Virus record (IMG/VR): IMGVR_UViG_2703718850_000011
Length of the DNA: 12,381 nucleotides
Strand: one strand, 5' to 3'
Source: a virus
Taxonomy: Duplodnaviria > Heunggongvirae > Uroviricota > Caudoviricetes
The notes under the pieces were generated by a model, which saw only the letters and a program-made list of their open reading frames with translations, was not told the origin of the DNA and did no database searches. Shown one piece after another: positions 1 through 12,381 of this stretch. Positions within the stretch are counted from its first letter, which is position 1. Each line of letters opens with the position of its first letter. The position numbers and the translations under genes are program-made.

Positions 1-486
1 TTAACGGATAAACAGCCAGATCAGCAGACACACCATCACCAGCACAGCAAAATCCATCAGGCTTGCCACATCCCATGCACATGATTCAAAACCGCCCCAC
101 CACGGCATATCATACGCCTGCAATACCCGAACATTTCAATCCAGCGATTATTCAGTCTGGGTGTGTTCGCGCACAATGAAGAACGTACAACCAGAGCCTA
201 CACAACCACAGCACAAACTGCATGAAGGCAAGGTGTTATATCTATAACCTCTCCTGTTTTCATCAACAAACAAAAATCAATTCCCGCCCCAAGGGGAAAA
301 TGATATCGTGAAGTCGATGCAAAAAAGTGTTGCACTCGTGCTATCCCTTGTCGTTAGCGGAGGTTGCGAAAGTCAACAGATAAAGTTATAGTTACACCGA
401 TGCATAAGCATTGCTTAAAATTTAACAACATTCCCTATTAGACTTGAGAATACTGTTAACAACACCCAACAAACTAGGAGTAAAGC

Positions 487-531
487 ATGATTAGAAACTT
501 TCGATTCTCTGATGAGCATCCGGATTTCTGA
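487..531 (+). CDS. Candidate leader peptide ORF, 14 codons (MIRNFRFSDEHPDF)
   Basis: Consensus Shine-Dalgarno AGGAG at 476-480 with 6-nt spacer to ATG 487. Lies 40 nt upstream of the hairpin at 571-601 and about 70 nt upstream of the main ORF. Confidence 0.3.
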   Translation: MIRNFRFSDEHPDF

Positions 532-570
532 TTAGGCTCTAAAAGCACCGAAGTCGGGATATGAGTGCAC

Positions 571-601
571 AAGGGCGGTTTTTAACCGCCCTTAGCTTTT
601 T
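571..601 (+). promoter_or_regulatory. Terminator-like hairpin plus T-tract immediately 5' of the 602 start codon (possible attenuator or translational control element)
   Basis: Perfect inverted repeat AAGGGCGGT (571-579) / ACCGCCCTT (585-593) around a short T-rich loop, then AGC and TTTTT (597-601) running directly into ATG 602. Confidence 0.45.
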
Positions 602-1606
602 ATGGACCAAAGTATGACAATCGAATTCTGTCTGGCTGTCTTGACAAGTAAATCTGTGATAGCCCTTCTTAATTTTCTTTTTCTCGCTTTAGTAATAGTG
701 ATGGGAGCTCTGCTCGGAAGCACGCTTCGAACTGGAAAAAACAGCGATACTAGTGACAAAAAGTTCATTGGTAGCACGCATATGATAGGTATTGGTGCTG
801 CTTTTATCTGCGTCCCCTTCATAGCTTCATTTCTACATCTAAATTATCAGTCACTTTTGCTTCCGCTAGCCGATACAACAGCAGCCGTATACATTGAACA
901 GTTGTTCATGCTGATATCTCTTGCAGGCATAGCTTCCTATCTTGGTTATGGGCTACTTGATAACATTGCAAACAAAGTTCTTCAGAGCCAGGTGCAAGAG
1001 ATTGGCCAGGAGCAAAAAGAAGCCAAACACTCTATCGAAGCTTTAGTTAATGAGAATAAGCAAATCAAGAGCAATGAGAAAAAAATCAGGCTCGAACTGC
1101 TGTATTTGAAAGCTAAAGATGCTGTAGAGTCAGGTCAGCGATATGGTGAGAAAACAACTGAAGAAGATAAGCTAGCTTCTAAGAAGAAATACAATGATGC
1201 CCTTGCTTTTTTAGATGAGGGGCTTAGAGAAATCAATGAAGAAGATGACTATCATTCATTTGACAGATTCATGGTTTTGAAAGCATTTACCCTAAAGCGA
1301 ATTGATGATATTGCAGGCGCGCTGGAAATTGTTAAAAAATTATTAGTGAAAGATAAAACAAATCCAGTCTTGCTTTACAACATGGGTTGTTACCTTTTGC
1401 TATCTAAGCAGCATAAAGATGAACAAGAAGTTAAAGATTTCATTATGAAAGCTTTGACTGTTACTCCAGAGAAAGAGGCGCATAAACCCTTGCAGAAAAA
1501 AATCATAGAAAAAGTTTTGGCGCGCTTGGATTCAGATATACAGGATCTGTTTAATGATGATGAGTTAGCCAGAATCAGAGAGATGGTTGGGAGCAAAGCA
1601 AACTAG
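602..1606 (+). CDS. Hypothetical membrane protein: three predicted N-terminal TM helices, coiled coil, TPR-like helical C-terminal domain; AT-rich cargo gene
   Basis: Only long ORF in the AT-rich island. Hydrophobic segments at about residues 8-38, 60-80 and 97-118; charged coiled coil at about 125-165; helical-repeat C-terminal region. Codon usage strongly A/T-biased, unlike the neighbouring phage genes. Followed by an intrinsic terminator. No obvious Shine-Dalgarno before ATG 602 or the alternative ATG 614. Confidence 0.7.
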   Translation: MDQSMTIEFCLAVLTSKSVIALLNFLFLALVIVMGALLGSTLRTGKNSDTSDKKFIGSTHMIGIGAAFICVPFIASFLHLNYQSLLLPLADTTAAVYIEQLFMLISLAGIASYLGYGLLDNIANKVLQSQVQEIGQEQKEAKHSIEALVNENKQIKSNEKKIRLELLYLKAKDAVESGQRYGEKTTEEDKLASKKKYNDALAFLDEGLREINEEDDYHSFDRFMVLKAFTLKRIDDIAGALEIVKKLLVKDKTNPVLLYNMGCYLLLSKQHKDEQEVKDFIMKALTVTPEKEAHKPLQKKIIEKVLARLDSDIQDLFNDDELARIREMVGSKAN

Positions 1607-1622
1607 CCCATCCTTGTTCTTT

Positions 1623-1652
1623 GAAGCGCCTGTAAAATGGCGCTTGTTTTTG
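1623..1652 (+). terminator. Rho-independent terminator downstream of the 602-1606 gene
   Basis: Stem AAGCGCC (1624-1630) / GGCGCTT (1639-1645) with 8-nt loop TGTAAAAT, followed by GTTTTTG, starting 17 nt after the stop codon. Confidence 0.65.
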
Positions 1653-1831
1653 AGTTCTATACTTTCAGCAGAAAAATAATTTCAGGACTATTTTCAGACA
1701 AATTCATATAAAATAAATAATACCAACATTGAGTATCCGCTCTGTAATTATATAATCTATGTACAGGCTCCTATCGAACGCAAGTCAGCCAGCTGTAGTA
1801 CGTTCTTGCATACGACATGCCGCAGCTTCTG

Positions 1832-2395
1832 TTATTCTGGCACGAAATTCCTCACCGACTTCAAATCCGCCATATTATTCAGCTCTTCCTTCATCTCCCG
1901 CTGGCGACGATAAATCTCGTCATTGCGATCGACCTGTGCCTGAACCATTGCAGTAAGCAGTTCATCCAGTTGTTGCATCGACAGTTTCACCTGCTGGTTT
2001 TCTGCATCGCCCCATACCATGGTTTTTCGCGCAGTGTCAGACTTTGATGCCATTACTGCCGGATAAAGACGAGCCAGTGAGTCGGCCCCAGCATTCCAGG
2101 TACGACCGTTCCATTCGAACGTGAACGGCTGCGCTTCCTGTTCTGTGCGCCAGGCTTCGATTTCCCGCTTTTTGGCATCTCTGGCTGCGGCAATAACTTC
2201 AGGCGTGACTGTGAACGGGGCGATTTCACCCCATCTGCCACTCTGCAGTTCCTGCCAGATTTGCCGGCCAGTTTCTGCTGTATCATTTGCCGAAGCTGTG
2301 TATGGAAGTGGCATTTCCATACCTGAAAACACGACCATGCAGTCAACATCTCCGGTTTCAAGATACCTTTGTTCGCTGATTTTTTTTATTTTCAT
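1832..2395 (-). CDS. Putative tail fibre assembly / chaperone protein (assigned by position), 187 aa from ATG at 2395
   Basis: Immediately downstream of the tail fibre gene with coupled start (TGATG). Size is typical for tail fibre assembly proteins (lambda Tfa 194 aa). I do not recognise the conserved Tfa sequence itself, so the family assignment is positional only. The six-frame ORF starts at GTG 2398; the ATG at 2395 is the likelier start. Confidence 0.5.
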   Translation of the reverse strand: MKIKKISEQRYLETGDVDCMVVFSGMEMPLPYTASANDTAETGRQIWQELQSGRWGEIAPFTVTPEVIAAARDAKKREIEAWRTEQEAQPFTFEWNGRTWNAGADSLARLYPAVMASKSDTARKTMVWGDAENQQVKLSMQQLDELLTAMVQAQVDRNDEIYRRQREMKEELNNMADLKSVRNFVPE

Positions 2396-3858
2396 CACAT
2401 CGTCCTTATAAAAGCAGCAATAATAAACTCACCTTCTCCGGTGTAATCCGGAGTTCCGGATAATGCACGGTAAACACCCGGCAATGTGTGCTTCTCTGTA
2501 CCAGAAAGCCCAATCTTCGGCGACGATAATGCTCCATCCGGAACACTGAATACCACGGGAGTAAGGACGGAGCCCGGGTAATATTGCCCTCGTACGACGC
2601 TAGCTGTTTTAGTGCTGCCACGGCTATTAAAGGCTGCCAGTGTTATGCTTCCAGCATACGGATCACCATAATTATCGTTTGTGGTCATGCTCAGGATTTT
2701 GGCAATATCATACAGGTCAATATTTATTTTCTCCCATTCACTCAGTGAAGGGCCATGTATGGCATCGTATGTTGCCCGATACAGTTCACCGTTCATCCCG
2801 TAAAAAACAGCCATCTTCAGCATCAGCGGGACAGTAAGGTTATTCCGCATCTCATCAGCGAAAAATAAATCAATCACACCTGTAAACTGTACTTCCGGTA
2901 TAATTTCGCAGTCAGCGCTGACCGTATACCGCCCCGGTGTGGCATTTGAGATCCAGTCAAGAAGCACTTCCTTCGACGAAAAGCTGAGAACGTCACCTTT
3001 TGTGAAGATATGCCCGAATCCCAGACTTCCTGCAACAGCGGCCCGCCCCTGCGTTCTGTCATAAATGTCTGACTGAAGCCCATAATTTCCGCCTGCTGCT
3101 GAGTTTCCACTATTTCCATTGATACCCAGAACGTCACACATCTCTTCGGCTGTGGATTGTGACAACAGCTGTTTCCCTTTTTCAGAAACAGGAGCCAGAG
3201 AACACTGCCCGTTACCGCTAAAACTGGGAAACCCATCTTCACCGGATGGAAGACGGCCTAACGCAGTCAGAACGGGATTTAAAGGCTGTTTTCCGTCCAG
3301 CATCTTCATTATCGTTACGGAAAACGCCGGGTCATTACCCAGCGCCTCCGCCAGTTCGTTCAGCGTGTCCAGGGTTTCCGGAGAAGAACCCACAAGAGCA
3401 GCAAGCAGTTTGCGGACAAACGCCGCATTCACTGTTTCCAGACCTGAAGCATCGTCCGGTGGTGTCGGTGTCATAGGGGTACCGGTGAAGACCGGACTAT
3501 CCAGTGACGCTTTTGTCTTCACCTCATTCATGACCTTACTGACTGCAAGGGATGTGGCGGCCTCTGTCTGCGAAGTGCTGTCAGTACGGTTACTGAGCTT
3601 GACAACTCCCTTTGTGGTCGTACTGGCATCTTCCAGGCCCACAGCAGATGCAATCTCCTCTGCCCGTTTTGCCGCATTTTCTGCGCGTGTTGCTGCAGAC
3701 TCAGCAGAACTTTTGCTCTGCACTGCCACCGCTGCACTACCTGCAGCCTCTTCCGCCTTACCGAATGCCTCGCCGGCCAATGATGCCGCCGCTGCTTCAT
3801 AGCCCGCCGCGGTGGATGCGCTCTGTGCCGCTGCCGTTTCAGAAGACCTGGCGTTCAT
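2395..3858 (-). CDS. stf: Side tail fibre protein, C-terminal fragment (487 aa from first ATG); frame stays open upstream to about 4155 without a start codon
   Basis: Ala/Ser-rich shaft repeats (KTSETNA..., SKSSAESAATRAENAAKRAEEIASAV...LEDASTTTKGVVKLS) followed by a globular C-terminal domain, with a small putative chaperone gene immediately downstream (1-nt TGATG overlap). The N-terminal part of a full-length fibre is absent. Confidence 0.75.
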   Translation of the reverse strand: MNARSSETAAAQSASTAAGYEAAAASLAGEAFGKAEEAAGSAAVAVQSKSSAESAATRAENAAKRAEEIASAVGLEDASTTTKGVVKLSNRTDSTSQTEAATSLAVSKVMNEVKTKASLDSPVFTGTPMTPTPPDDASGLETVNAAFVRKLLAALVGSSPETLDTLNELAEALGNDPAFSVTIMKMLDGKQPLNPVLTALGRLPSGEDGFPSFSGNGQCSLAPVSEKGKQLLSQSTAEEMCDVLGINGNSGNSAAGGNYGLQSDIYDRTQGRAAVAGSLGFGHIFTKGDVLSFSSKEVLLDWISNATPGRYTVSADCEIIPEVQFTGVIDLFFADEMRNNLTVPLMLKMAVFYGMNGELYRATYDAIHGPSLSEWEKINIDLYDIAKILSMTTNDNYGDPYAGSITLAAFNSRGSTKTASVVRGQYYPGSVLTPVVFSVPDGALSSPKIGLSGTEKHTLPGVYRALSGTPDYTGEGEFIIAAFIRTM

Positions 3859-4155
3859 CTCGGATGTTTTTGCCTCCTTCGCGGCATTTTCTGCCGCCGT
3901 TGCCGAGGAGGCTGCACCACTGGCGCTTGATGATGCGTTCGTTTCTGATGATTTTGCTGCCTCTTTTGAGGCCTCCGCCTCACGGGCTGAGGTGGCAGCT
4001 TCTGACGCTTTCGCGGTCGCGGTGGATGCTGAGGTGGCGGCTGATTGTTGTGACGCTGCCGCATTCGTTTCTGACGTTTTCGCGGCAACAGCACTGGTGG
4101 CCGCCGCGCTTTTCGAGGACTCTGCAGCGGCTGCACTTTTTGATGCCTCAGAGTC
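3590..4155 (-). repeat. Imperfect tandem Ala/Ser-rich peptide repeats of the tail fibre shaft (coding repeat)
   Basis: Translation in the stf frame: EASKSAAAAESSKSAATSAVAAKTSETNAAASQQSAATSASTATAKASEAATSAREAEASKEAAKSSETNASSSASGAASSATAAENAAKEAKTSEMNARSSETAAAQSAS... The recurring KxSETNA / SSA units generate spurious long ORFs in all other frames. Confidence 0.55.
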
Positions 4156-4394
4156 TCATGTAACTGCGCCGTTAACCCGGACGTGCTGACGTCCCGCCCG
4201 GCAATCCGTACCTGATACCAGCCGTCGCTCAGTTTCTGACGAAACGCCGGGAGCTGTGTGGCCAGTGCGCGGATGGCTTCAGCCCCCGTTTTCACACGAA
4301 GGTCGATGCGGCGGCCAAATCGTTGTAAATCCCCGTAAAGGCAGATGCGCGCCATGCCCGGTGACGCCAGAGGGAGTGTGTGCGTCGCTGCCAT
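3855..4394 (-). pseudogene. I: Tail tip assembly protein I, N-terminal about 82 codons only, continuing out of frame into tail-fibre repeat sequence
   Basis: Starts MAATHTLPLASPGMARICLYGDLQRFGRRIDLRVKTGAEAIRALATQLPAFRQKLSDGWYQVRIAGRDVSTSGLTAQLHETL (gpI-like). From about 4148 downward the frame yields an Arg/Pro/Gln-rich low-complexity string, which is the alternate-frame reading of the Ala/Ser-rich tail-fibre repeats that run in another frame. Confidence 0.7.
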
Positions 4395-5035
4395 TTGTCG
4401 GTATACCTCTCTCGTTTGCTCAGTTGTTCAGGAATATGGTGCAGCAGCTCGCCGTCACCACAGTAAATGGCGGCATGATTCGGCACCGATGAACCAAAGC
4501 AGCACAGCAGCACATCGCCCGGTTGTGCTGATGACAACGGCACCTGATACAGCCCTGTGGCCTCCAGATTATCCAGATAGAGATTCTGACCGTGACGCCA
4601 CCAGTCATCCTCACGATGAAAATCCGGCATCTCAATCCCCGCCAGATGATAAGCATCCCGGAACAGCGTGTAACAGTCCGTCACCCCGTGCTCAAAGCAC
4701 CGCCCGGTAAGATGCGGCACACAGCGGAACTTATGAATCGTCCCCCGGCAGACCAGCCACCACGGCAAATCACTCTGCACCTGCAGCCGCCGGTCGGCCT
4801 CACTCAGCCAGGGCAGACCACCGGGGTGGCTGTGGACCAGCGCCACTATCTCACCCTGCATTTCTGCCTGCAGCCAGTCCTCCGGAACCATCCGGAAATA
4901 CGCCTCCGGCTCACCGGAGATATTCACGCAGGGGAAATATCTTTCCCCCTCCGGCGTGCTTACCACGAAGCCGCACGACTCCGCTGGCGCACATCGCCGG
5001 GCGTGCGCCAGAATCGCTGATTCTGTCTCTGTCAT
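4292..5035 (-). CDS. K: Tail tip assembly protein K with JAB/MPN and NlpC/P60 domains, 247 aa from ATG at 5035
   Basis: JAMM motif HSHPGGLPWLSEAD (H-x-H-x7-S-x2-D) followed by an NlpC/P60-like region with candidate catalytic Cys (GVTDCYTLF) and His. The six-frame ORF extends to 5077, but the ATG at 5035 (MTETESAIL...) sits 1 nt after the L stop and is the likelier start. Overlaps the I start by about 100 nt, as in lambda. Confidence 0.85.
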   Translation of the reverse strand: MTETESAILAHARRCAPAESCGFVVSTPEGERYFPCVNISGEPEAYFRMVPEDWLQAEMQGEIVALVHSHPGGLPWLSEADRRLQVQSDLPWWLVCRGTIHKFRCVPHLTGRCFEHGVTDCYTLFRDAYHLAGIEMPDFHREDDWWRHGQNLYLDNLEATGLYQVPLSSAQPGDVLLCCFGSSVPNHAAIYCGDGELLHHIPEQLSKRERYTDKWQRRTHSLWRHRAWRASAFTGIYNDLAAASTFV

Positions 5036-5039
5036 GGGA

Positions 5040-5738
5040 TTACTGCGAAAGTTTGTTAATGGAAAGGAAGCCGCCAAAGTTGCCGACGTTATTGCGGAAC
5101 TTACAACCGCTCAGGCATTTGCTGCATTTATCCTTCGTGATATCGGACGTTGGCTGGTCATATTCATCCGCGACCGCCGGACCGTGATAACCGCACTCAT
5201 CGCCGCGATAGGTCCAGGTGCAGGTGTTGGCCAGCATGATACGTCCCGGAAAAACAGCGCCGTCCGTTTCCGTCGGCGTGGACAGTACAAAGGAGGCACT
5301 CACCGCGCTCAGTTCGCTGCACTGCTCAATGCGCCAGCGGCTGATCACCTCCTGCTCCGGATCGGCGTCACTGTTTCCGTTGACGAAGTTCACCGCATCC
5401 AGAAAACGGGCGTAAACCTTACGCCGGACCACCGTTCCGCCGACCAGACTCTGCAGATCTTCCGCCATCCCGGTGACCATACCGTACAGGTTAGAAACCG
5501 TCAGCGTGGGGCGCGTACTGGTGCCTTTGCCATTCAGTTCAAAACCACTCCCCTGAATGGGATACGGCTGATACTGTCGCCCCTGCCAGGTGACCGGCTC
5601 ACCTTTTTCGTTCTGCTCATTACAGAAAAAATAACGTTCTCCACCGACCTCTGTCAGGTCGATTTCCCAGAGCACCACGCTGGCCGACTGCTCCGCACGG
5701 GTGCATTCATTCAGTGTTTCCTGCCGGATATCCTGCAT
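5040..5738 (-). CDS. L: Tail tip protein L, 232 aa
   Basis: 232 aa, the lambda gpL length. C-terminal cysteine cluster (TCTWTYRGDECGY ... CSKCLSGCKF) typical of gpL. Gene order H-M-L-K. Confidence 0.9.
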   Translation of the reverse strand: MQDIRQETLNECTRAEQSASVVLWEIDLTEVGGERYFFCNEQNEKGEPVTWQGRQYQPYPIQGSGFELNGKGTSTRPTLTVSNLYGMVTGMAEDLQSLVGGTVVRRKVYARFLDAVNFVNGNSDADPEQEVISRWRIEQCSELSAVSASFVLSTPTETDGAVFPGRIMLANTCTWTYRGDECGYHGPAVADEYDQPTSDITKDKCSKCLSGCKFRNNVGNFGGFLSINKLSQ

Positions 5739-6067
5739 CAGTTCACCACCTGTTCAAATTCTGCGCTGAACTCAACACGCAGCATACTGACCCGCGACGA
5801 CCATTTTGCGCAGGTCACCTTTATCTGCCGCCACTCATAAGGCGGCGTCCACAGAAAGGATTTCCAGCCCCCGTGCTCAGCCAGAAACGACTCAAGCGCC
5901 GTGGCCTCCCAACGGGGAACAGAAAGCGTCACGCTGTACGTTTTCAGGTCGGCATTCAGCCCGGCAGGCGCTCGCTGGGAATAGCCATCACCAAAGCGCA
6001 CCTTTCTTACGGAAGGGGCCGAAGCCACATCCATACCGGGTTTCACTTTCCAGCGGAAGGTTTTCAT
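5738..6067 (-). CDS. M: Tail tip protein M, 109 aa
   Basis: 109 aa, the lambda gpM length. Position between H and L; ATGA overlap with H stop and with L start. Recognisable gpM sequence (FRWKVKPGMD..., WKSFLWTPPYEW). Confidence 0.88.
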   Translation of the reverse strand: MKTFRWKVKPGMDVASAPSVRKVRFGDGYSQRAPAGLNADLKTYSVTLSVPRWEATALESFLAEHGGWKSFLWTPPYEWRQIKVTCAKWSSRVSMLRVEFSAEFEQVVN

Positions 6068-8559
6068 CGTCCACCTCCGGAGAACAGACCACCATCGCGC
6101 ATCTGCCCGGTCACAACATCCATTGCCGCCTTACGGGCTACGTCATAAACCGCCTTCAGCGCCTGTGGCCCTATCTGACCGTTCGTGCCGTCGTTGTTAA
6201 TCACCACATGGTTATTCTGCTCAAACGTCCCGGACGCCTGCGAGCGGCTGTCCGCCATGCTGCCCGGTGTACCGACATAACCACCGGTGGCATAGCCGCG
6301 CATCAGCCGGTAGAGATTTCCCACGCCAATCCGGCTGGTTGCCTCCTTCGTGAAGACAAATTCACCACGGTGAACAATCCCCGCTGGCTCATATTTGCCG
6401 CCGGTTCCCGTAAATCCTCCGGTTGCAAAATGGAATTTCGCCGCAGCGGCCTGAATGGCTGTACCGCCTGACGCGGATGCGCCGCCACCAACAGCCCCGC
6501 CAATGGCGCTGCCGATACTCCCGACAATCCCCACCATTGCCTGCTTAAGCAGAATTTCTGTCATCATGGACAGCACGGAACGGGTGAAGCTGCGCCAGTT
6601 CTGCTCACTGCCGGTCAGCATCGCCGCCATATTCTGTGCAATACCATCAAAGGTCTGCGTGGCTGCACTTTTTACCTGCAACATACTGTCCGTGGCGCTC
6701 TCTTCCCACTCACTCCAGCCGGACTTCAGGCCTGCCATCCAGCTCCCGCGAAGCTGGTCTTCAGCCGCCCAGGTCTTTTTCTGCTCTGACATGACGTTAT
6801 TCAGCGCCAGCGGATTATCGCCATACTGTTCCTTCAGGCGCTGTTCCGTGGCTTCCCGTTCTGCCTGCCGGTCAGTCAGTCCCCGGCTTTTCGCATCAAT
6901 GGCGGCCCGTTTTGCCCGTTGCTGCTGTGCGAATTTATCCGCCTGCTGCGCCAGCGCGTTCAGGCGCTCCTGATACGTAACCTTGTCGCCAAGTGCAGCC
7001 AGCTGGCGTTTGTACTCCAGCGTCTCATCTTTATGCGCCAGCAGGGATTTCTCCTGTGCAGACAGCTGGCGACGTTGCGCCGCCTCCTCCAGTACCGCGA
7101 ACTGACTCTCCGCCTTCCACAAATCCCGGCGCTGCTGGCTGATTTTCTCATTTGCTCCGGCATGCTTCTCCAGCGTCCGGAGTTCAGCCTGAAGCGTCAG
7201 CAGGGCAGCATGAGCACTGTCTTCCTGACGATCGCCCGCAGACACCTTCACGCCGGACTGTTTCGGCTTTTTCAGCGTCGCTTCATAATCCTTTTTCGCC
7301 GCCACCATCAGCGTGTTGTAATCTGCCTGCAGGATTTTTCCGTCTTTCAGTGCCTTATTCAGTTCCTCCTGACGGGCGGTATATTTCTCCAGCGGTGTCT
7401 GCAGGCGTTCGTAAGCCTTCTGCGCCTCTTCGGTATATTTCAGCCGTGACGCTTCGGTATCGCTCTGCTGCTGCGCATTTTTGTCCTGTTGACTCTGCTG
7501 CTCAGCCTTCTTTCGGGCGGCTTCAAGCGCAAGACGGGCCTTTTCACGATCATCCCAGTAACGCGCCCGCGCTTCATCGTTAACAAAATAATCATCCTTG
7601 CGCAGATTCCAGATGTCGTCTGCTTTCTTAAACGCAGCCTCTGCCTTAATCAGCATCTCCTGCGCGGTATCAGGACGACCAATATCCAGCACCGCATCCC
7701 ACATGGATTTGAATGCCCGTGCTGTCCTGTCTGCCCAGGTCTCCAGCGTGTCCATGTTCTCTTTCAGGCGGCGGGTCTGGTCATCAAACCCTTTCGTTGC
7801 GGCTTCGTTCGCCGCCTGCAATGCCCCGGCTTCATCGCCGGAACGCTGCAACTGAGCAACATACGCAATCTGTTCCGCCGTCACGTTATGGAACTGGCGT
7901 GCCATCGCCGTCAGCCCCGACGTCGGGTCTGTGGTCAGCTTCCCGAAGGCTTCAGCGACCTTGTCCACCTCCACGCCGGATGCAGAAGAGAAACGCGCCA
8001 CACTCTGGCTGATGGACGCAATCTGAGCCTCACCGCTTACCCCCGCCTTAACCAGTGCGCTGAGTGACTCGCTGGTCTGGTTAAACGTCAGCCCTGCCGC
8101 CTGCCCGGCTCTGGACAGGACCAGCATACGATCTGCCGTCAGACCCGACTGATGACCGGAAAGGACCAGCGTTTTGTTGAAATCGGACAGGGTTGAGTTG
8201 CCCTGATACCAGGCATACGCCAGCGCACCGGTCGCCACCGCCAGCGAGGTGGCCCCGACCATCGGCAGGGTGATCGCACCGGCAAGCCCCCTGAACATGG
8301 GGATCATCCCGCCGAAGGAGTCCTTAACCTGACCACCCTGTTGCAGCAGGATCAGCCACGGACTCTGCCCGCCTGCAAGCTGCGTGGCCACGTCGGTGAA
8401 CTGCGCAGGCAGCATACGCATGGCAGCTTTATACTGCCCGACGGAAATCCCCGCTTTCTGTGCAGCCAGTGCCTGTCGGCTCAGCGACTGTTCAACGACT
8501 GCCGCTGTTTTTTTCGCATCACTTTCCGTACCGGAAAAATGACGCCTGACTCTGGCCAT
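6064..8559 (-). CDS. H: Tail tape measure protein (lambda gpH family), 831 aa from first ATG; native 5' end apparently lost
   Basis: About 830 aa with coiled-coil-rich centre and glycine-rich C-terminal region (GIVGSIGSAIGGAVGGGASASGG), located immediately upstream of M-L-K-I. The same frame is open from 8628 and encodes ...GDLVVDLSLDAARFDEQ upstream of the ATG at 8559 with no start codon, so the native N-terminus (about 22 aa in lambda H, 853 aa) is clipped. Confidence 0.9.
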   Translation of the reverse strand: MARVRRHFSGTESDAKKTAAVVEQSLSRQALAAQKAGISVGQYKAAMRMLPAQFTDVATQLAGGQSPWLILLQQGGQVKDSFGGMIPMFRGLAGAITLPMVGATSLAVATGALAYAWYQGNSTLSDFNKTLVLSGHQSGLTADRMLVLSRAGQAAGLTFNQTSESLSALVKAGVSGEAQIASISQSVARFSSASGVEVDKVAEAFGKLTTDPTSGLTAMARQFHNVTAEQIAYVAQLQRSGDEAGALQAANEAATKGFDDQTRRLKENMDTLETWADRTARAFKSMWDAVLDIGRPDTAQEMLIKAEAAFKKADDIWNLRKDDYFVNDEARARYWDDREKARLALEAARKKAEQQSQQDKNAQQQSDTEASRLKYTEEAQKAYERLQTPLEKYTARQEELNKALKDGKILQADYNTLMVAAKKDYEATLKKPKQSGVKVSAGDRQEDSAHAALLTLQAELRTLEKHAGANEKISQQRRDLWKAESQFAVLEEAAQRRQLSAQEKSLLAHKDETLEYKRQLAALGDKVTYQERLNALAQQADKFAQQQRAKRAAIDAKSRGLTDRQAEREATEQRLKEQYGDNPLALNNVMSEQKKTWAAEDQLRGSWMAGLKSGWSEWEESATDSMLQVKSAATQTFDGIAQNMAAMLTGSEQNWRSFTRSVLSMMTEILLKQAMVGIVGSIGSAIGGAVGGGASASGGTAIQAAAAKFHFATGGFTGTGGKYEPAGIVHRGEFVFTKEATSRIGVGNLYRLMRGYATGGYVGTPGSMADSRSQASGTFEQNNHVVINNDGTNGQIGPQALKAVYDVARKAAMDVVTGQMRDGGLFSGGGR

Positions 8560-8609
8560 CTGCTCGTCAAATCTGGCCGCATCCAGACTTAAATCAACGA
8601 CCAGATCGC

Positions 8610-9746
8610 CTAACTGACCTTCGAGTAGTCACGGGACAACTGTTCGTAGGAAACGCCAAGACCGGCGGCGATATACCGCAGCAGCGCCTGTTCAAGCGCA
8701 GAAAATCCATTGTCTGAATCCTGCGCGGTCTGCAGTTTCAGATCATCCCCAGGGAAAAGGTGCGGAATTTTGACACCGCCCAGCGTCACGTGATTCGTGT
8801 CATACCAGCTGGAGAACTTCTCCAGAATATTAATAAGCGGATTATCCTTCTGCCCCTGCGGCGCACCGGCGATATATTCAAAGGCCTTTTCGGTATCAAG
8901 TTCACTTTCGATTGTGGCTGCATACATGGCCTTCACAATGGCCGACTGAAGCTGTGTTACCTGCAGGGAATCGAGCATCTTCAGCCGCTCCATGACGCTG
9001 TAAAACTGATTAGCCCCACGGGTCTGCCCGTCCTCCACCGGCTCGAAAATATGCAGCATGGCCGGACGCCCGGTGGGAAGTTCACGCGGGATCCGTTCCC
9101 ATCCTCCACTACCAGAGAACGGAAAATCATCCTCACAGATGTGGTACGCGACGGCACGGCCATATCGATCGACCTCCACACCGGCCCGCAGAAAACGGTT
9201 CCCCATACCGTGTCCAGGCGTGTCCACCCGTTTCGGACTCACGGCTTTAAAACGCGTACGGAATAACTGCGTGCTTTCCGTATCCCAGACCGGCTGCACA
9301 AAGATTTCGCCGTTAAACGCATGAACGCCCACACCTTCACGGATAAATTCCGTGAACGTGCGTTTTCCTTCCACGTCGATCTCGCCAAACATCCCTTCGG
9401 CGTATTCCGACCAGGCCGCCTCCACCTCATCGACAAAGCTTTTTGCTGCGGTCTCCCGCATCCCCAGCCAGCGCCAGTTCGGACGGTAGCTGATCAGAAA
9501 CATATGCCCGACAATGTGATCTTTATGCAGGGCCACCGCATTAGCCGCTATTCCGTTATTGCGCACCAGATCATCTGCCCGGGCATTCCCCAGACGCAAC
9601 GCGGGCAGCAGGGCCGCATCGGCACTCTGCGCCGGTGGCAACCACTCCGCCATTTGCCCGCCAAATCCTGCGCCGCCCCCGTTGTAGCTGAGACTCTCAC
9701 GAAGCGGAACGCCGTTCACATCAATCAGGACAGGCGTTAGTTTCAT
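8610..9746 (-). pseudogene. B: Portal protein (lambda gpB family), truncated: 378 codons, where lambda-type portals are about 530 aa
   Basis: The N-terminal and central portal regions are recognisable (DDLVRNNG, LFRTRFKAVSPKR, EPVEDGQTRGANQFYSVMERLKMLDSLQ, AIVKAMYAATIESELDT, LRYIAAGLGVSYEQLSR). The frame ends at TAG 8610-8612 and the C-terminal third is absent. The tape-measure frame begins within about 20 bp. Confidence 0.85.
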
Positions 9747-9949
9747 AACCTCACTCCCAGCGGACGACGGCGACGCCGGGTTGTCCCCAGTACCGACTCC
9801 GCATCATTGATCGCCCGGTTAAGCTCATCCAGAGAAGCCGCCGTATATTCAATTCTGCGACCATCTTTCTGGACAGACACCACCCGTTTACCGGTTAATA
9901 AATCAAGGCGCGCCTGACGCAGCGCCTGCAGTTCAGCGACTGTAACCAT
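9743..9949 (-). CDS. W: Head-tail joining / head completion protein gpW, 68 aa
   Basis: 68 aa, the same length as lambda gpW, with the conserved core TGKRVVSVQKDGRRIEYTA. Its stop overlaps the portal ATG (ATGA). The annotated start overlaps the end of A by 17 nt, so the exact start is uncertain. Confidence 0.85.
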   Translation of the reverse strand: MVTVAELQALRQARLDLLTGKRVVSVQKDGRRIEYTAASLDELNRAINDAESVLGTTRRRRRPLGVRL

Positions 9950-11861
9950 TCACTCCTCCGGACAGCTTCGCTGCCAGTTCTTTCAGGGTTGGCCGGGTCG
10001 TCTCTTCTTCCCGGGATTTTGCCAGTACAGCCAGATCAAGCTGCCAGCGTTGCACGGACACACGTAATGCCGCGTAGGCATACACCAGGCAGTCCAGCGC
10101 TTCGTTACGCCGCTTTTTGTTATCCCACAGCAGACGCATCTTTCCTTTTTCCCACTTCTCCACAAGCTCTTCCGCGACCAGTTGCTGCGCCTCTGTCTGC
10201 GAAAAAATCTCCGGATCATCAGGAAAACGGATGGCATACGACGTGGCTTCATCCACAGGCGTGGGATCGGCTTTCATACGGGCATAGAGAATTTCTTTTG
10301 CGGTGTCCGTCCCCACTTCACACAGATACACGCCCCGCTGATTGCGGGTTTTTGGCATGGTGATCACCGGCTTGCCATAGACAGATGCGCCTTTTACCGG
10401 CAGCACCCGGAAAACACCGTGTTTTTTTGACCTCTGATAAACGATTTCTCCATCGATCCCCCCGATGTCCCAGCAGACACGGGAAATAGTCATTTCGGTT
10501 CCGTCTGCATGGCGGTATTTTTTGTTGATCGCCGCATCCACACGTAACAGCGTCTCTTCCTCATCGGGACGCCCCATAATGATGATTTTATCCACCAGAA
10601 AGGCTTCCTCTCCCGGAGCCCATCCCCAGACATACATCTCAAAACGGTTTCGCTGCGAGTCAATGCCCGCCGTCAGATAAACCACCCGGGCAGGCACCGC
10701 CGCCGTGTAACGCACAACCTTATCCATCAGTACCTGGTGATCGAGTTTTTCGCCCACGGCCTCTTCCCAGGTCTCGCCCAGCGTGGTGTTCACAAAGGTT
10801 TTCAGGCCGTTGGGATCTTTCAGTGCATCCAGCCAGTCATAGACAATCTGTACCCAGGTGGTGAACGGACTGTACGCCGTCCAGATATGGAAAGTGATGG
10901 AGCGCGGCGGCGGAATTTCATCACCCCGGTCGCTGAAAAACATCAGACCGTCACGGGTCCACATGCCCGTGTTTTCACAGATCCACCGCCCGTTGCTCTG
11001 GTCAAGCTCAGACTGATGGATCACGCAGCCATGATGTTCACAGAGGTAGAAAACGCTTTCTGGGCTGTCCTTCTCCCATTTAAGGCCAAAAGGCGTGGAT
11101 TCATCGCCAAATTTCAGATACTGCTCCTCCCCACAGTGCGGGCAGGGCACATAAAAACGCATGAAATGCGCCGACTCGTTGGCCGCTTTTTCGATCTGGC
11201 AGGAGCCTTTTATTTTAGGCGTCGAGCCGCGAATGGATTTTGGCCATACAGAGCCCTCAATACGCTTATCCCCCAGCAGGGTTGGCGAGCCCTCTTTTTC
11301 AACATCCGGCTCGAACGAGGAAAGTTCGTCATAGCAGACCACATCCACGGATTTTTCACGGTAGTTTTTGGCGGCAGCACCACCCAGGCACCAGAAACCC
11401 ACACGGGAAGTGAATCTTTTTAATGTCAGCGTGTTATCCCGGTGCTTACGTCCCAGCCAGGGGGAAAGAATTTTCAGACAGGGAACATCCCGTAATGTTG
11501 ACTCCACATGAGACTTCATAAAATCTTCAGCGGCAGAATCCGTAGGCTGAAACAGAAGACTGTTACGGTTTTTATGCTCAATAAAGTAACCAATAACGCC
11601 CATCAGCATTTTGGTGTAACCGACTCGAGCTGATTTTATAAGATTAATCGTGCGGATCCGGTCATTACCCATGCAGTTCATTATTGCCACCTGAAATGGC
11701 AACGTCTTCCACCGCCCAGCAAGATAAGAGGACTCCGGGGGCAAATAATAATTTTGATCGGCCCATTCAACGGTGGTTACAGGCAGTGGGCGTAAAAGCC
11801 CACGAAGTGCCACTCCACAAACAACAGCAAAGTTATTTAGCTGCTTCTCTGAGGTATTCAT
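9933..11861 (-). CDS. A: Terminase large subunit (lambda gpA family), 642 aa
   Basis: Length matches lambda gpA (641 aa). Contains the P-loop-like KSARVGYTK motif and conserved blocks ([57 protein letters not shown]) recognisable as the gpA terminase family. Sits between Nu1 and W. Confidence 0.93.
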
Positions 11862-12381
11862 CCAGCATCTCCGGTAACTTCTCTGCCGTTGATGCGCATC
11901 GGTTTGCCGCCTTTGCTATATCGGTTTTCAGGAAATCAAGCATAGCGGGCGTCAGTGCCGAAAACTGTCTCTGCATGGACAATGGAATGGAGTCAAGAAT
12001 GGCAGAGATCTCCTGTGCCAGTCTTCCCAGAGCAAAAAGGCAAAACCCTGTATCAATGACCTGCCCACTGTCGCGGGCATTTTTCAGTTCCTGTGCATCT
12101 GCCTGTGCCTTCGTCAGTCGGTAACGTTCGTAATCAATGGTGCCGGGCTGAAGGTCTGATTCGCTGGCAGCCCTCAAATCCTCGACCTCTTTACGGAGTT
12201 TTTCGTTTTCAATATCAGCTTCGCGCTGCGCATACCACTGAATGGCAGCAGTTGTATCAAAAACTGATTCAGTCCCTTTCCCTCCACCAGAAACTAGTGG
12301 TACCCCCTGACTCTGCCAGGCGGTGATAGTCCTGACATCAACGCCAAAAATATCGGCCAGTTTTTTCTTATTGACGTTCAT
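11833..12381 (-). CDS. nu1: Terminase small subunit (lambda Nu1 family), 182 aa, apparently complete; start codon is at the window edge
   Basis: Translation [30 protein letters not shown]... has the N-terminal helix-turn-helix typical of Nu1, the right length (about 181 aa) and overlaps the start of the large terminase gene by 29 nt, as in lambda. Confidence 0.9.

Follow-up and report, generated by a model that had tools for sequence, protein, structure and literature searches.

Is the gene at the end of a prophage-derived DNA controlled by an attenuator when a short open reading frame (ORF) and a terminator-like hairpin stand directly in front of it? The question is raised by the 12,381-nucleotide virus DNA (Caudoviricetes) held in IMG/VR as record IMGVR_UViG_2703718850_000011, of which the whole stretch is called the window here. 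In the window, a 14-codon micro-ORF and a hairpin with a T-rich tail precede the gene of a 330-residue protein, the cargo gene. A first-pass annotation had read this layout as leader-peptide attenuation or structure-gated translation initiation, with an independent micro-gene carrying its own terminator as the fallback. As judged from comparison of 16 distinct lineages of the cargo whose upstream DNA could be read, the peptide/terminator module is real, undescribed, and without the switch that a classical attenuator needs. The elements on which the argument turns are the following.

476-480, plus strand: Shine-Dalgarno (SD) sequence AGGAG of the micro-ORF, read from the sequence
487-531, plus strand: micro-ORF for MIRNFRFSDEHPDF, with the tail D-E-x-P-D-[FLI]-stop, seen upstream of all cargo homologues examined
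571-593, plus strand, with the tail AGCTTTTT at 594-601: intrinsic-terminator-like hairpin, from scan, folding and comparison
603-606, plus strand: degenerate cargo SD TGGA, homologous to AAGGA of the relatives, from alignment of the tails
614-1606, plus strand: cargo gene, 330 aa from ATG 614, the start given by the Prokaryotic Genome Annotation Pipeline (PGAP)

The micro-ORF is maintained as a peptide

The micro-ORF begins with the ATG at 487-489, six nucleotides past its SD, runs for 14 sense codons and ends with the TGA stop at 529-531. A leader ORF with its own SD had been noticed in the window, and the observation extends to the relatives. An ORF of 10-16 codons lies at the same position upstream of the cargo gene in 16 of 16 lineages, over which cargo identity runs from 100% down to 29%, and in all of them a strong SD (AGGAG, GAGGAG, GGAGG, AGAGG or GAGAGG) stands 5-8 nt ahead of its ATG. 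The DNA compared came from Klebsiella aerogenes, Providencia stuartii, Proteus mirabilis, Pantoea, metagenome and Logan contigs, three remote members and a K. pneumoniae plasmid. The C-terminus D-E-x-P-D-[F/L/I]-stop (DExPD-Phi below) is invariant across the whole set, its conserved residues immediately preceding the stop codon. The peptides are as follows.

Enterobacterial variants: MIR[NKT][FL]R[FY]SDEHPDF
L017 and Pantoea: MIMKFRFSDEHPDF
L020: MRKFIVSDEHPDF
L029: MITNFNFCDERPDL
L030: MKGYVANVYMDERPDI
L031: MKLHDEWPDF
Klebsiella plasmid (L041): MKKIKLHDERPDL

The pattern of substitutions supports a genuine translated ORF that is selected as a peptide. Within the final seven codons, the 11 enterobacterial variants differ only synonymously (TCT/TCA/TCC, GAT/GAC, CCG/CCA/CCT), and each of the invariant D, E, P and D residues is encoded by two or three codons when the remote members are included (GAT/GAC, GAG/GAA, CCG/CCA/CCT and GAT/GAC). 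The N-terminal half of the peptide, its length, its stop codon (TGA or TAA), the 5' untranslated region (UTR) and the spacer before the hairpin vary among lineages, the two non-coding parts being the least conserved. Residues that stay invariant while their codons vary imply selection at the peptide level; likewise, synonymous-only changes in the tail beside a variable N-terminal half, length, UTR and spacer exclude an RNA-only constraint and chance as their source. A gene on the opposite strand was considered as the source of this conservation and rejected, as no minus-strand ORF lies over 487-531 and the minus-strand ORF at 592-822 is unsupported.

Every match of two degenerate leader DNA patterns, in viral and metagenome collections, has the cargo directly downstream. 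This strict one-to-one linkage shows, for the collections scanned, that the micro-gene and the cargo belong together. The micro-ORF is annotated in none of the records examined; it has been missed by annotation pipelines though it is among the most conserved parts of a cassette whose partner gene falls to 29% identity.

A terminator-like hairpin without an alternative fold

The hairpin at 571-593, AAGGGCGGTT/TTT/AACCGCCCTT, has a perfect 10-bp stem with six G-C pairs and a loop of 3 nt (-15.4 to -16.3 kcal/mol). It is separated from the leader stop by a spacer of 39 nt (532-570), in agreement with the perfect GC-rich hairpin that the first-pass annotation had placed about 40 nt past the leader. 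After the stem come AGC and a T5 run at 597-601, directly followed by ATG 602-604, the first codon of the longest ORF (334 aa). All 16 lineages have one strong stem-loop (-13.4 to -18.2 kcal/mol) and a T-rich tail; it lies 13-70 nt past the leader stop and, in all but one of them (15/16), 17-30 nt ahead of the cargo ATG. At least seven unrelated stem sequences occur (AAGGGCGG, GAAAGGGCGA, ACGGGUCGCC, AAAAGCAGCC, AGAGCAGGCA, AAGCGAGCC and AAAGGCAGCC), and because the stems are unrelated in sequence between lineages, the hairpin is, on comparative grounds, maintained as a structure. The T-tract is interrupted (UUAGCUUUUU or UUAACUUUU) in about half of the lineages, including the window, which fits incomplete termination.

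An attenuator would require a second fold that competes with the terminator. Folding of full-length and truncated transcripts of 11 lineages always formed the terminator, and no competing structure used its arms. In duplex folding of either arm against the 5' UTR, leader and spacer of 10 lineages, the best values were -5.8 to -13.5 kcal/mol; eight of the 10 lineages did not improve on the median of the shuffles, and none passed their 5% tail. There is thus no alternative fold able to switch the terminator off, and the mutually exclusive terminator and antiterminator structures that had been suggested as a check did not appear. The distance of 13-70 nt from stop to hairpin is also too long and too variable for a ribosome on the leader to mask the stem.

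Two further pairings concern the micro-ORF itself.

484-538, plus strand: hairpin H1 around the whole micro-ORF (AGC-AUG... with ...UGA-UUAGGCU), from folding
550-560, plus strand: spacer segment GAAGUCGGGAU, complementary to the last micro-ORF codons (518-528), from duplex folding

H1 (-17.4 kcal/mol, z = -2.3) has 89% of its cells paired in 12 sequences with almost no covariation, ranks at the 3rd-15th percentile against synonymous recodings and is absent from the remote members. It is a weak, lineage-specific structure, and the argument does not lean on it. The duplex of 518-528 with 550-560 reaches -13.7 kcal/mol at best (p = 0.07 against shuffled spacer). Analogous spacer complements, differing in sequence and position, are present in most lineages with long spacers (AGAAAUCC, CUGGAU, GGUCCGGA, AGGAUG, AGAUCU and CAAGUC), with individual p values of 0.02-0.16, and are absent in the two shortest spacers (13-15 nt). 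The complement has no overlap or pairing link with the terminator, and its suggestive pairing with the last codons would compete with H1. No Rfam family reached its gathering score in the window; the best permissive matches scored 13-21 bits against thresholds of 40-229.

Promoter and the need for read-through

The sites upstream of the micro-ORF from which the module could be transcribed are listed here.

364-392, plus strand: sigma-70 promoter-like site TTGCGA-17-TATAGT, 9/12 match, from scan
399-412, plus strand: possible 5'-proximal transcript stem-loop GAUGC-AUAA-GCAUU, from inspection only

Transcription would start at the promoter-like site at 364-392, which together with a weaker one at 422-451 is the only such site upstream. 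The block GGTTGCGAAAGTCAACAGATAAAGTTATAGTT hardly varies among E. coli, K. aerogenes, L007, L013, L025 and L027, and TTGCAC-17-TATAGT occurs in L017 and Pantoea. A short hairpin past the -10 box was also seen by inspection in relatives (AGAUGC..GCAUCU in L007, GGUGC..GCACC in L025, UGAUGC..GCAUCA in L027 and UGCAU..AUGCA in Pantoea). In none of the 16 lineages did the promoter scan find a sigma-70-like site between the start codons of leader and cargo, and a cargo promoter within the leader or spacer was rejected on this ground. Since no promoter-like site lies between micro-ORF and cargo, transcription of the cargo must, by this prediction, pass the hairpin, and the protein would be made only by terminator read-through.

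The cargo gene and its predicted protein

The T5 run at 597-601 does abut ATG 602, as had been reported, but the real start of the cargo is probably ATG 614. The tail ...TTTTCAAGGAnnnnnnATG of Kaer, L007, L013, L025 and L027 aligns with ...TTTTTATGGACCAAAGTATG of the window; in the relatives, an AAGGA SD follows immediately 3' of the T-tract and stands 6-8 nt ahead of their ATG. The start at 614 is preferred over 602 because the ATGGA of the window (602-606) aligns with this AAGGA, and PGAP agrees. In L020, the ATG equivalent to 602 meets a stop two codons on. The cargo had also been described as having no SD of its own, whereas a weak remnant, GGA at 604-606, lies 7 nt ahead of ATG 614. Hence both the T-run abutting the start and the missing SD probably arise from the longest-ORF rule. 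The SD of the micro-ORF (AGGAG) is strong compared with the weaker SD of the cargo (AAGGA or UGGA). A homologue, P0004 (347 aa), whose N-terminus is MYKGGLLTALNFFMD, had its start extended through the terminator by the gene caller, 'KGGLLTAL' being the translated stem-loop; it exemplifies how the longest-ORF rule mis-starts the cargo gene.

In the AlphaFold2 model of the cargo (17-sequence alignment, mean predicted local distance difference test score, pLDDT, of 78), transmembrane helices span 17-44, 56-77 and 94-120, a single long helix at 94-182 joins the third of them to a coiled coil, and helical repeats fill 187-333 (pLDDT >90). The cargo is thus modelled as an uncharacterised membrane protein with three transmembrane helices, a coiled coil and a TPR-like C-terminal domain. 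Within the C-terminal domain, K228, N256, Y260 and K274 are invariant. The positive-inside rule, applied by eye to the loop charges, would place the repeat domain in the cytoplasm; the micro-peptide is without a signal sequence. The Pfam family YLATT (PF20303) matches the cargo with 21.3 bits (E 2.5e-4), below the gathering threshold of 26.7 bits, and weak YLATT matches occur in 7 of 16 family members (best E 2.8e-5). The protein is therefore YLATT-like and not a certified YLATT member. TPR_17 matches the cargo at E 0.01, below the cut-off, and TPR_19, TPR_2 and TPR_8 match single members. The best Foldseek matches of the C-terminal domain in the PDB are small TPR domains, at weak E values of 0.016-0.1 with none at or below 0.001. 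The matched TPR domains were solved with acidic C-terminal peptides, namely Sec72-Ssa1, FKBP38/51/52-MEEVD, RPAP3-SRMEEVD and PEX5-PTS1. The cargo has no match to any model of PADLOC-DB 2.0 (0 families) and no PHROG or NCBIfam family.

A conserved non-helical segment of the cargo, LDSDIQDLFNDDEL, lies at about residues 306-319 (window 1529-1570), with D308, F313 and E317 invariant and L312 nearly so. It is modelled as coil (pLDDT ~87), and its acidic S-D-x-x-x-x-F pattern resembles the SDEHPDF of the micro-ORF tail. By this resemblance the segment might serve the TPR-like domain as an intramolecular pseudo-ligand.

What the module may do

The reading that we tentatively prefer, as plausible and well short of probable, is that of an operon of the mccA-mccB kind, in which a leaky terminator separates a peptide gene from its partner gene and the peptide acts in trans on the TPR-like domain of the cargo. 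The order would be a promoter, a strongly translated micro-gene, a strong intrinsic terminator and a promoterless membrane-protein gene. The terminator would serve as a fixed leaky valve with no switch; most transcripts would end near 601 and encode the peptide alone, while a minority would read through and add the membrane protein. The peptide would hence far outnumber its partner, as in the microcin C operon, where the 7-codon mccA is in excess over mccB. A fixed valve explains what a switch set by ribosome position does not, namely the missing antiterminator and the stop-to-hairpin distance of 13-70 nt. The reading also draws on the peptide-level selection, the strict linkage, the conserved but often interrupted terminator, the promoterless cargo with its weaker SD, the mobile setting and the type of fold of the C-terminal domain, whose best matches are peptide-binding TPRs. 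In the weakest step of the scheme, the acidic C-terminal tail would dock on the cytoplasmic TPR-like domain and keep the membrane protein inactive, as an antitoxin does. Once phage-induced shut-off, or the loss of plasmid or prophage, puts an end to peptide synthesis, the short-lived peptide would decay and set the membrane effector free. The binding step and the biological role of the peptide are what we infer here. The more specific form of this proposal, a two-component peptide/effector module in which an unmodified, cytoplasmic, labile antidote or ligand of 10-16 residues has its tail read by the TPR-like domain at a ratio hard-wired by the internal terminator, is possible but doubtful. 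The fallback of the first-pass annotation, the independent micro-gene with its own terminator, is no less likely than regulation in cis, and the strict linkage ties the micro-gene to the cargo.

Several points weigh against the preferred reading. The TPR fold matches are weak (E 0.016-0.1), the sequence profile of the cargo matches designer PPR repeats about equally well, and PADLOC offers no match. A tail this constant, over a fall of the cargo from 100% to 29% identity, is usually too constant for a co-evolving ligand, and unchanged residues beside the stop are a hallmark of nascent-chain arrest peptides. The tail also has the published composition of DE/P-rich sequences that destabilise the ribosome. 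Finally, peptides of 10-16 residues are expected to be degraded fast, and to turn that into a feature is an assumption.

The main rival is a sensory leader acting in cis, in which the nascent DExPD-Phi peptide would stall or destabilise the ribosome at or just before the stop and so alter the expression that reaches the cargo. It could take the form of termination arrest, as in PepNL, TnaC and SpeFL, or of DE/P-dependent intrinsic ribosome destabilisation (IRD), as with the EPDP of MgtL, and the membrane protein would then be induced upon perturbed translation (phage takeover, Mg2+ or ribosome stress, antibiotics). We regard this as a real but rather unlikely alternative. If only residues near the peptidyl-transferase centre mattered, an invariant tail and a variable N-terminal half would be predicted, and the invariant residues are indeed the last six before the stop, with the N-terminal half and the length free to vary. 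The D, E, P and D of the tail fall within the last six residues, at positions 5-15 of peptides of 10-16 residues; with four D/E/P per six-residue window inside the first 16 residues, the tail is IRD-prone by the published definition (at least four D/E/P in a six-residue window near the N-terminus). The risk of IRD is highest for short nascent chains (bioRxiv 10.1101/2021.02.02.429294), and arrest at the stop codon is proven for the product of pepNL, a 14-codon E. coli upstream ORF (PMC11890864). Known leader-controlled genes show the same layout of ORF, terminator and promoterless gene, and the two competing local pairings (H1 and the spacer complement) involve the last codons. However, the leader has no RNA link to the terminator, as the arms pair upstream no better than shuffles and the spacer complement lies off the terminator, and the stop-hairpin distance excludes steric masking. 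The known stop-codon sensors TnaC, SpeFL and MgtL use Rho instead of an intrinsic terminator. In IRD it is the composition that counts, whereas here D-E-x-P-D-Phi has a fixed order, and no sequence similarity was seen in an informal comparison with known arrest peptides, PepNL as described in its paper among them. Bulky residues before the motif, reported to counteract IRD (bioRxiv 10.1101/2021.02.02.429294), precede it here as F, R and F.

The remaining explanations are far less likely. That the short transcript (~400 to 601) is a functional small RNA ended by the terminator, with the ORF incidental, secondary or part of a dual function, is quite improbable: promoter, 5' hairpin, structured body (H1) and intrinsic terminator do resemble a small RNA gene, but the substitutions follow codons, the non-coding parts are the least conserved and there is no Rfam match. 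Attenuation of the trp/his/phe kind, in which ribosome position on regulatory codons selects between antiterminator and terminator, has very little in its favour beyond the short ORF with an SD, the intrinsic terminator, the promoterless gene and the three Phe codons of the E. coli leader. The leader has no tandem identical codons and no regulatory-codon run, its Phe codons are non-contiguous and unconserved (F5 becomes L, and F7 becomes Y or V among relatives), conservation falls on an acidic/Pro tail, the cargo is no biosynthetic gene, and an antiterminator is missing, since in 8 of the 10 lineages folded the arm duplexes reach the shuffled median at best. Thus, of the attenuation claim, the attenuator-like layout, its origin other than by chance and the need for read-through stand, while the antiterminator and the codon run do not. 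Gating of the erm/cat type, by a hairpin that hides the ribosome-binding site of the cargo until a ribosome stalled on the leader opens it, is just as improbable as attenuation. The minimum free energy fold of the window does lengthen the stem by weak A-U and G-U pairs over UUUAUGGACC (597-606), but this extension is not conserved, and the relatives have their AAGGA SD and ATG 3' of the T-tract and outside the conserved stem, which also speaks against the structure-gated initiation first proposed. The leader, moreover, does not overlap the hairpin, its stop lying 13-70 nt 5' of the stem. Neither trp-type attenuation nor erm-type translational gating is supported. There is next to no likelihood that a chance ORF and an ordinary terminator left from an upstream gene, without function, account for the locus. 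The window alone might have suggested it, with 4 terminator-like sites per 2.4 kb against 2.3 +/- 1.4 in shuffles and a fold z-score of -1.76 for 452-640; from these figures the reported elements are not beyond chance, and their significance stems from the comparison. A chance origin is refuted by the comparative data: the arrangement persists in all 16 lineages, to a cargo identity as low as 29%, its codons vary synonymously, its stems are unrelated and compensating, and the cassette moves as a unit.

Comparison with known systems

The closest parallel in layout is mccA-mccB, in which an intrinsic terminator past a 7-codon ORF yields an abundant short and a minor long transcript (Zukher et al., 2014; PMC4231749). 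Both systems have a tiny ORF with its own SD, an intergenic intrinsic terminator and a promoterless downstream gene, with a predicted excess of the peptide message here. They share no homology, the cargo is not a ThiF/MccB-type enzyme, and the peptide is proposed as a ligand or inhibitor and not as an enzyme substrate. The mcc terminator is weakened by upstream RNA and regains its effect when a ribosome binds (PMC4231749), whereas the duplex search in 10 lineages detected no upstream pairing to the terminator here.

Among leader peptides, MgtL of mgtA is likewise short, has a D/E/P motif near its N-terminus (EPDP vs DExPD) and precedes a membrane-protein gene that is reached if transcription continues. 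MgtL works via alternative stem-loops and Rho-dependent termination. The module described here, in contrast, has an intrinsic terminator and no switch structure, and its motif keeps a fixed order and stands directly before the stop. The EPDP of MgtL is a regulatory example of IRD (Chadani et al., bioRxiv 10.1101/2021.02.02.429294). PepNL, TnaC and SpeFL are encoded by upstream ORFs of 10-30 codons and have conserved functional C-terminal residues beside the stop; PepNL also has 14 residues, its C-terminus being Ile13-Asp14 (PMC11890864). As compared by descriptions, they show no sequence similarity to the micro-peptide, and those that control transcription block Rho loading. The trpL, hisL and pheL leaders share the order of promoter, leader ORF, terminator and gene, but the regulatory codon run and the antiterminator are absent here.

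With respect to a peptide acting in trans, the pairs Hop/FKBP/Sec72-EEVD and PEX5-PTS1 and the RRNPP quorum receptors with their peptides likewise combine a three-repeat TPR-like domain with a short peptide, here one with a conserved acidic C-terminal hexapeptide, although the fold matches to these TPR receptors are weak (E >= 0.016). The RRNPP peptides are secreted and re-imported in Firmicutes, whereas the micro-peptide has no signal sequence and the hosts examined are Enterobacterales or metagenome organisms. Type II toxin-antitoxin and abortive-infection pairs resemble the module as two-gene mobile units with a small upstream product expected in excess, found at prophage moron sites or on very small plasmids. 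They differ in that the 'antitoxin' would have only 10-16 residues and lack a DNA-binding domain, a terminator in place of translational coupling would set the ratio, and PADLOC gives no match. No description of the peptide, the motif or the cassette was found in Rfam, Pfam, PADLOC or the searchable literature. The layout is known in kind; what is new is the combination of an invariant DExPD-Phi tail, the lack of an antiterminator and a YLATT-like/TPR-like membrane partner.

The cassette, its relatives and its genomic setting

The module forms part of a larger mobile unit, listed here with its terminal hairpin.

297-1678, plus strand: whole mobile cassette of promoter, micro-ORF, terminator, cargo and second terminator, from genome comparison
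1624-1652, plus strand: cassette-ending terminator-like hairpin AAGCGCC-TGTAAAAT-GGCGCTT followed by GTTTTTGAGT, from scan

Positions 1-2400 of the window are 100% identical to E. coli 1303, a bovine mastitis isolate, where this region forms the end of a lambda-like prophage, next to potB; the start of the IMG/VR contig UViG_2675903580_000004 shares the coordinates of the window. Of 5,426 complete E. coli genomes, only 3 contain the region 297-640. The two besides 1303, GN25 and UID2309220033, have the block 297-1678 at 90% identity between a Rac-like prophage integrase and tRNA-Ser, with flanks unrelated to those of the window, whose cassette adjoins tail-fibre genes. A block so similar between unrelated flanks implies that promoter, ORF, hairpin, gene and second terminator move as one cassette. 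To the left, a frameshifted pseudogene at 1-245 on the minus strand is annotated in E. coli 1303, and a terminator-like hairpin at 298-281 marks the boundary of the cassette.

Homologues of the cargo were sought by a word-seeded search of 5.8 billion proteins, which gave 16 clusters, and by an exhaustive hidden Markov model (HMM) search, which gave 13 representatives at E <= 1e-30 and full-length members down to ~28% identity. The remote members were reached by the full HMM search, and a second word-seeded profile search added none. Scans of a one-genome-per-species contig set with the cargo profile and the leader patterns found nothing, the family being absent there. A tblastn search of isolated phages with two queries gave no match, and a scan of viral contigs with a remote-member profile returned only 8 contigs, all already known.

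The cassette is found at prophage ends by tail-fibre or integrase genes, in a P22-like arc/ant immunity region, beside umuDC-like neighbours and on a ~4-kb ColE1-type plasmid. Such mobile-element 'moron' sites are typical of two-part toxin/antidote and exclusion modules. The plasmid is a ColRNAI-type of ~3,991 bp from K. pneumoniae, with 69 records (clinical and other isolates), 68 of them typed as non-mobilizable. It carries a cargo homologue of 37% identity with its own micro-ORF and terminator (L041, NZ_CP036325.1, 1170-1342). Only four genes are annotated on this plasmid, the module being one of them, which suggests a maintenance or exclusion role. Upstream of the module, at 958-1024 of L041, lies a 66-nt near-perfect palindrome, ggtagccaaaggggcggggcttcgcttattcc/ttaggaataagcgaagccccgcccctttggctacc. 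A tRNA-like sequence was seen by eye at 2380-2465 of L007, ~400 nt upstream of the cassette, and the tRNA-Ser of GN25 lies just downstream of it; the cassette tends toward integration-site edges of mobile elements.

The remainder of the window, 1832-12381 on the minus strand, holds lambda-like structural genes, of which most head genes are missing.

9933-11861, minus strand: terminase large subunit
9743-9949, minus strand: adaptor
8610-9746, minus strand: portal, truncated, only 378 aa
6064-8559, minus strand: tape measure, directly after the portal

Minor tail and tail-fibre genes are also encoded on this strand, and 4,487 bp of the J region are absent relative to E. coli 1303. By its gene content, the window is a defective, deletion-bearing prophage.

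Implications

The system is small (~1.4 kb) and portable. If the peptide acts in trans, prophages and a ~4-kb plasmid type of K. pneumoniae would carry a new peptide/TPR signalling or antidote pair, and the peptide would offer a handle on an uncharacterised YLATT-like membrane protein. If it acts in cis, DExPD-Phi-stop would be a new nascent-chain motif, and leader control would be exerted at an intrinsic terminator without an antiterminator. Should the antidote module prove true, the peptide would be the smallest proteinaceous antitoxin-like partner known, and the pair would constitute a direct sensor of ongoing host gene expression.

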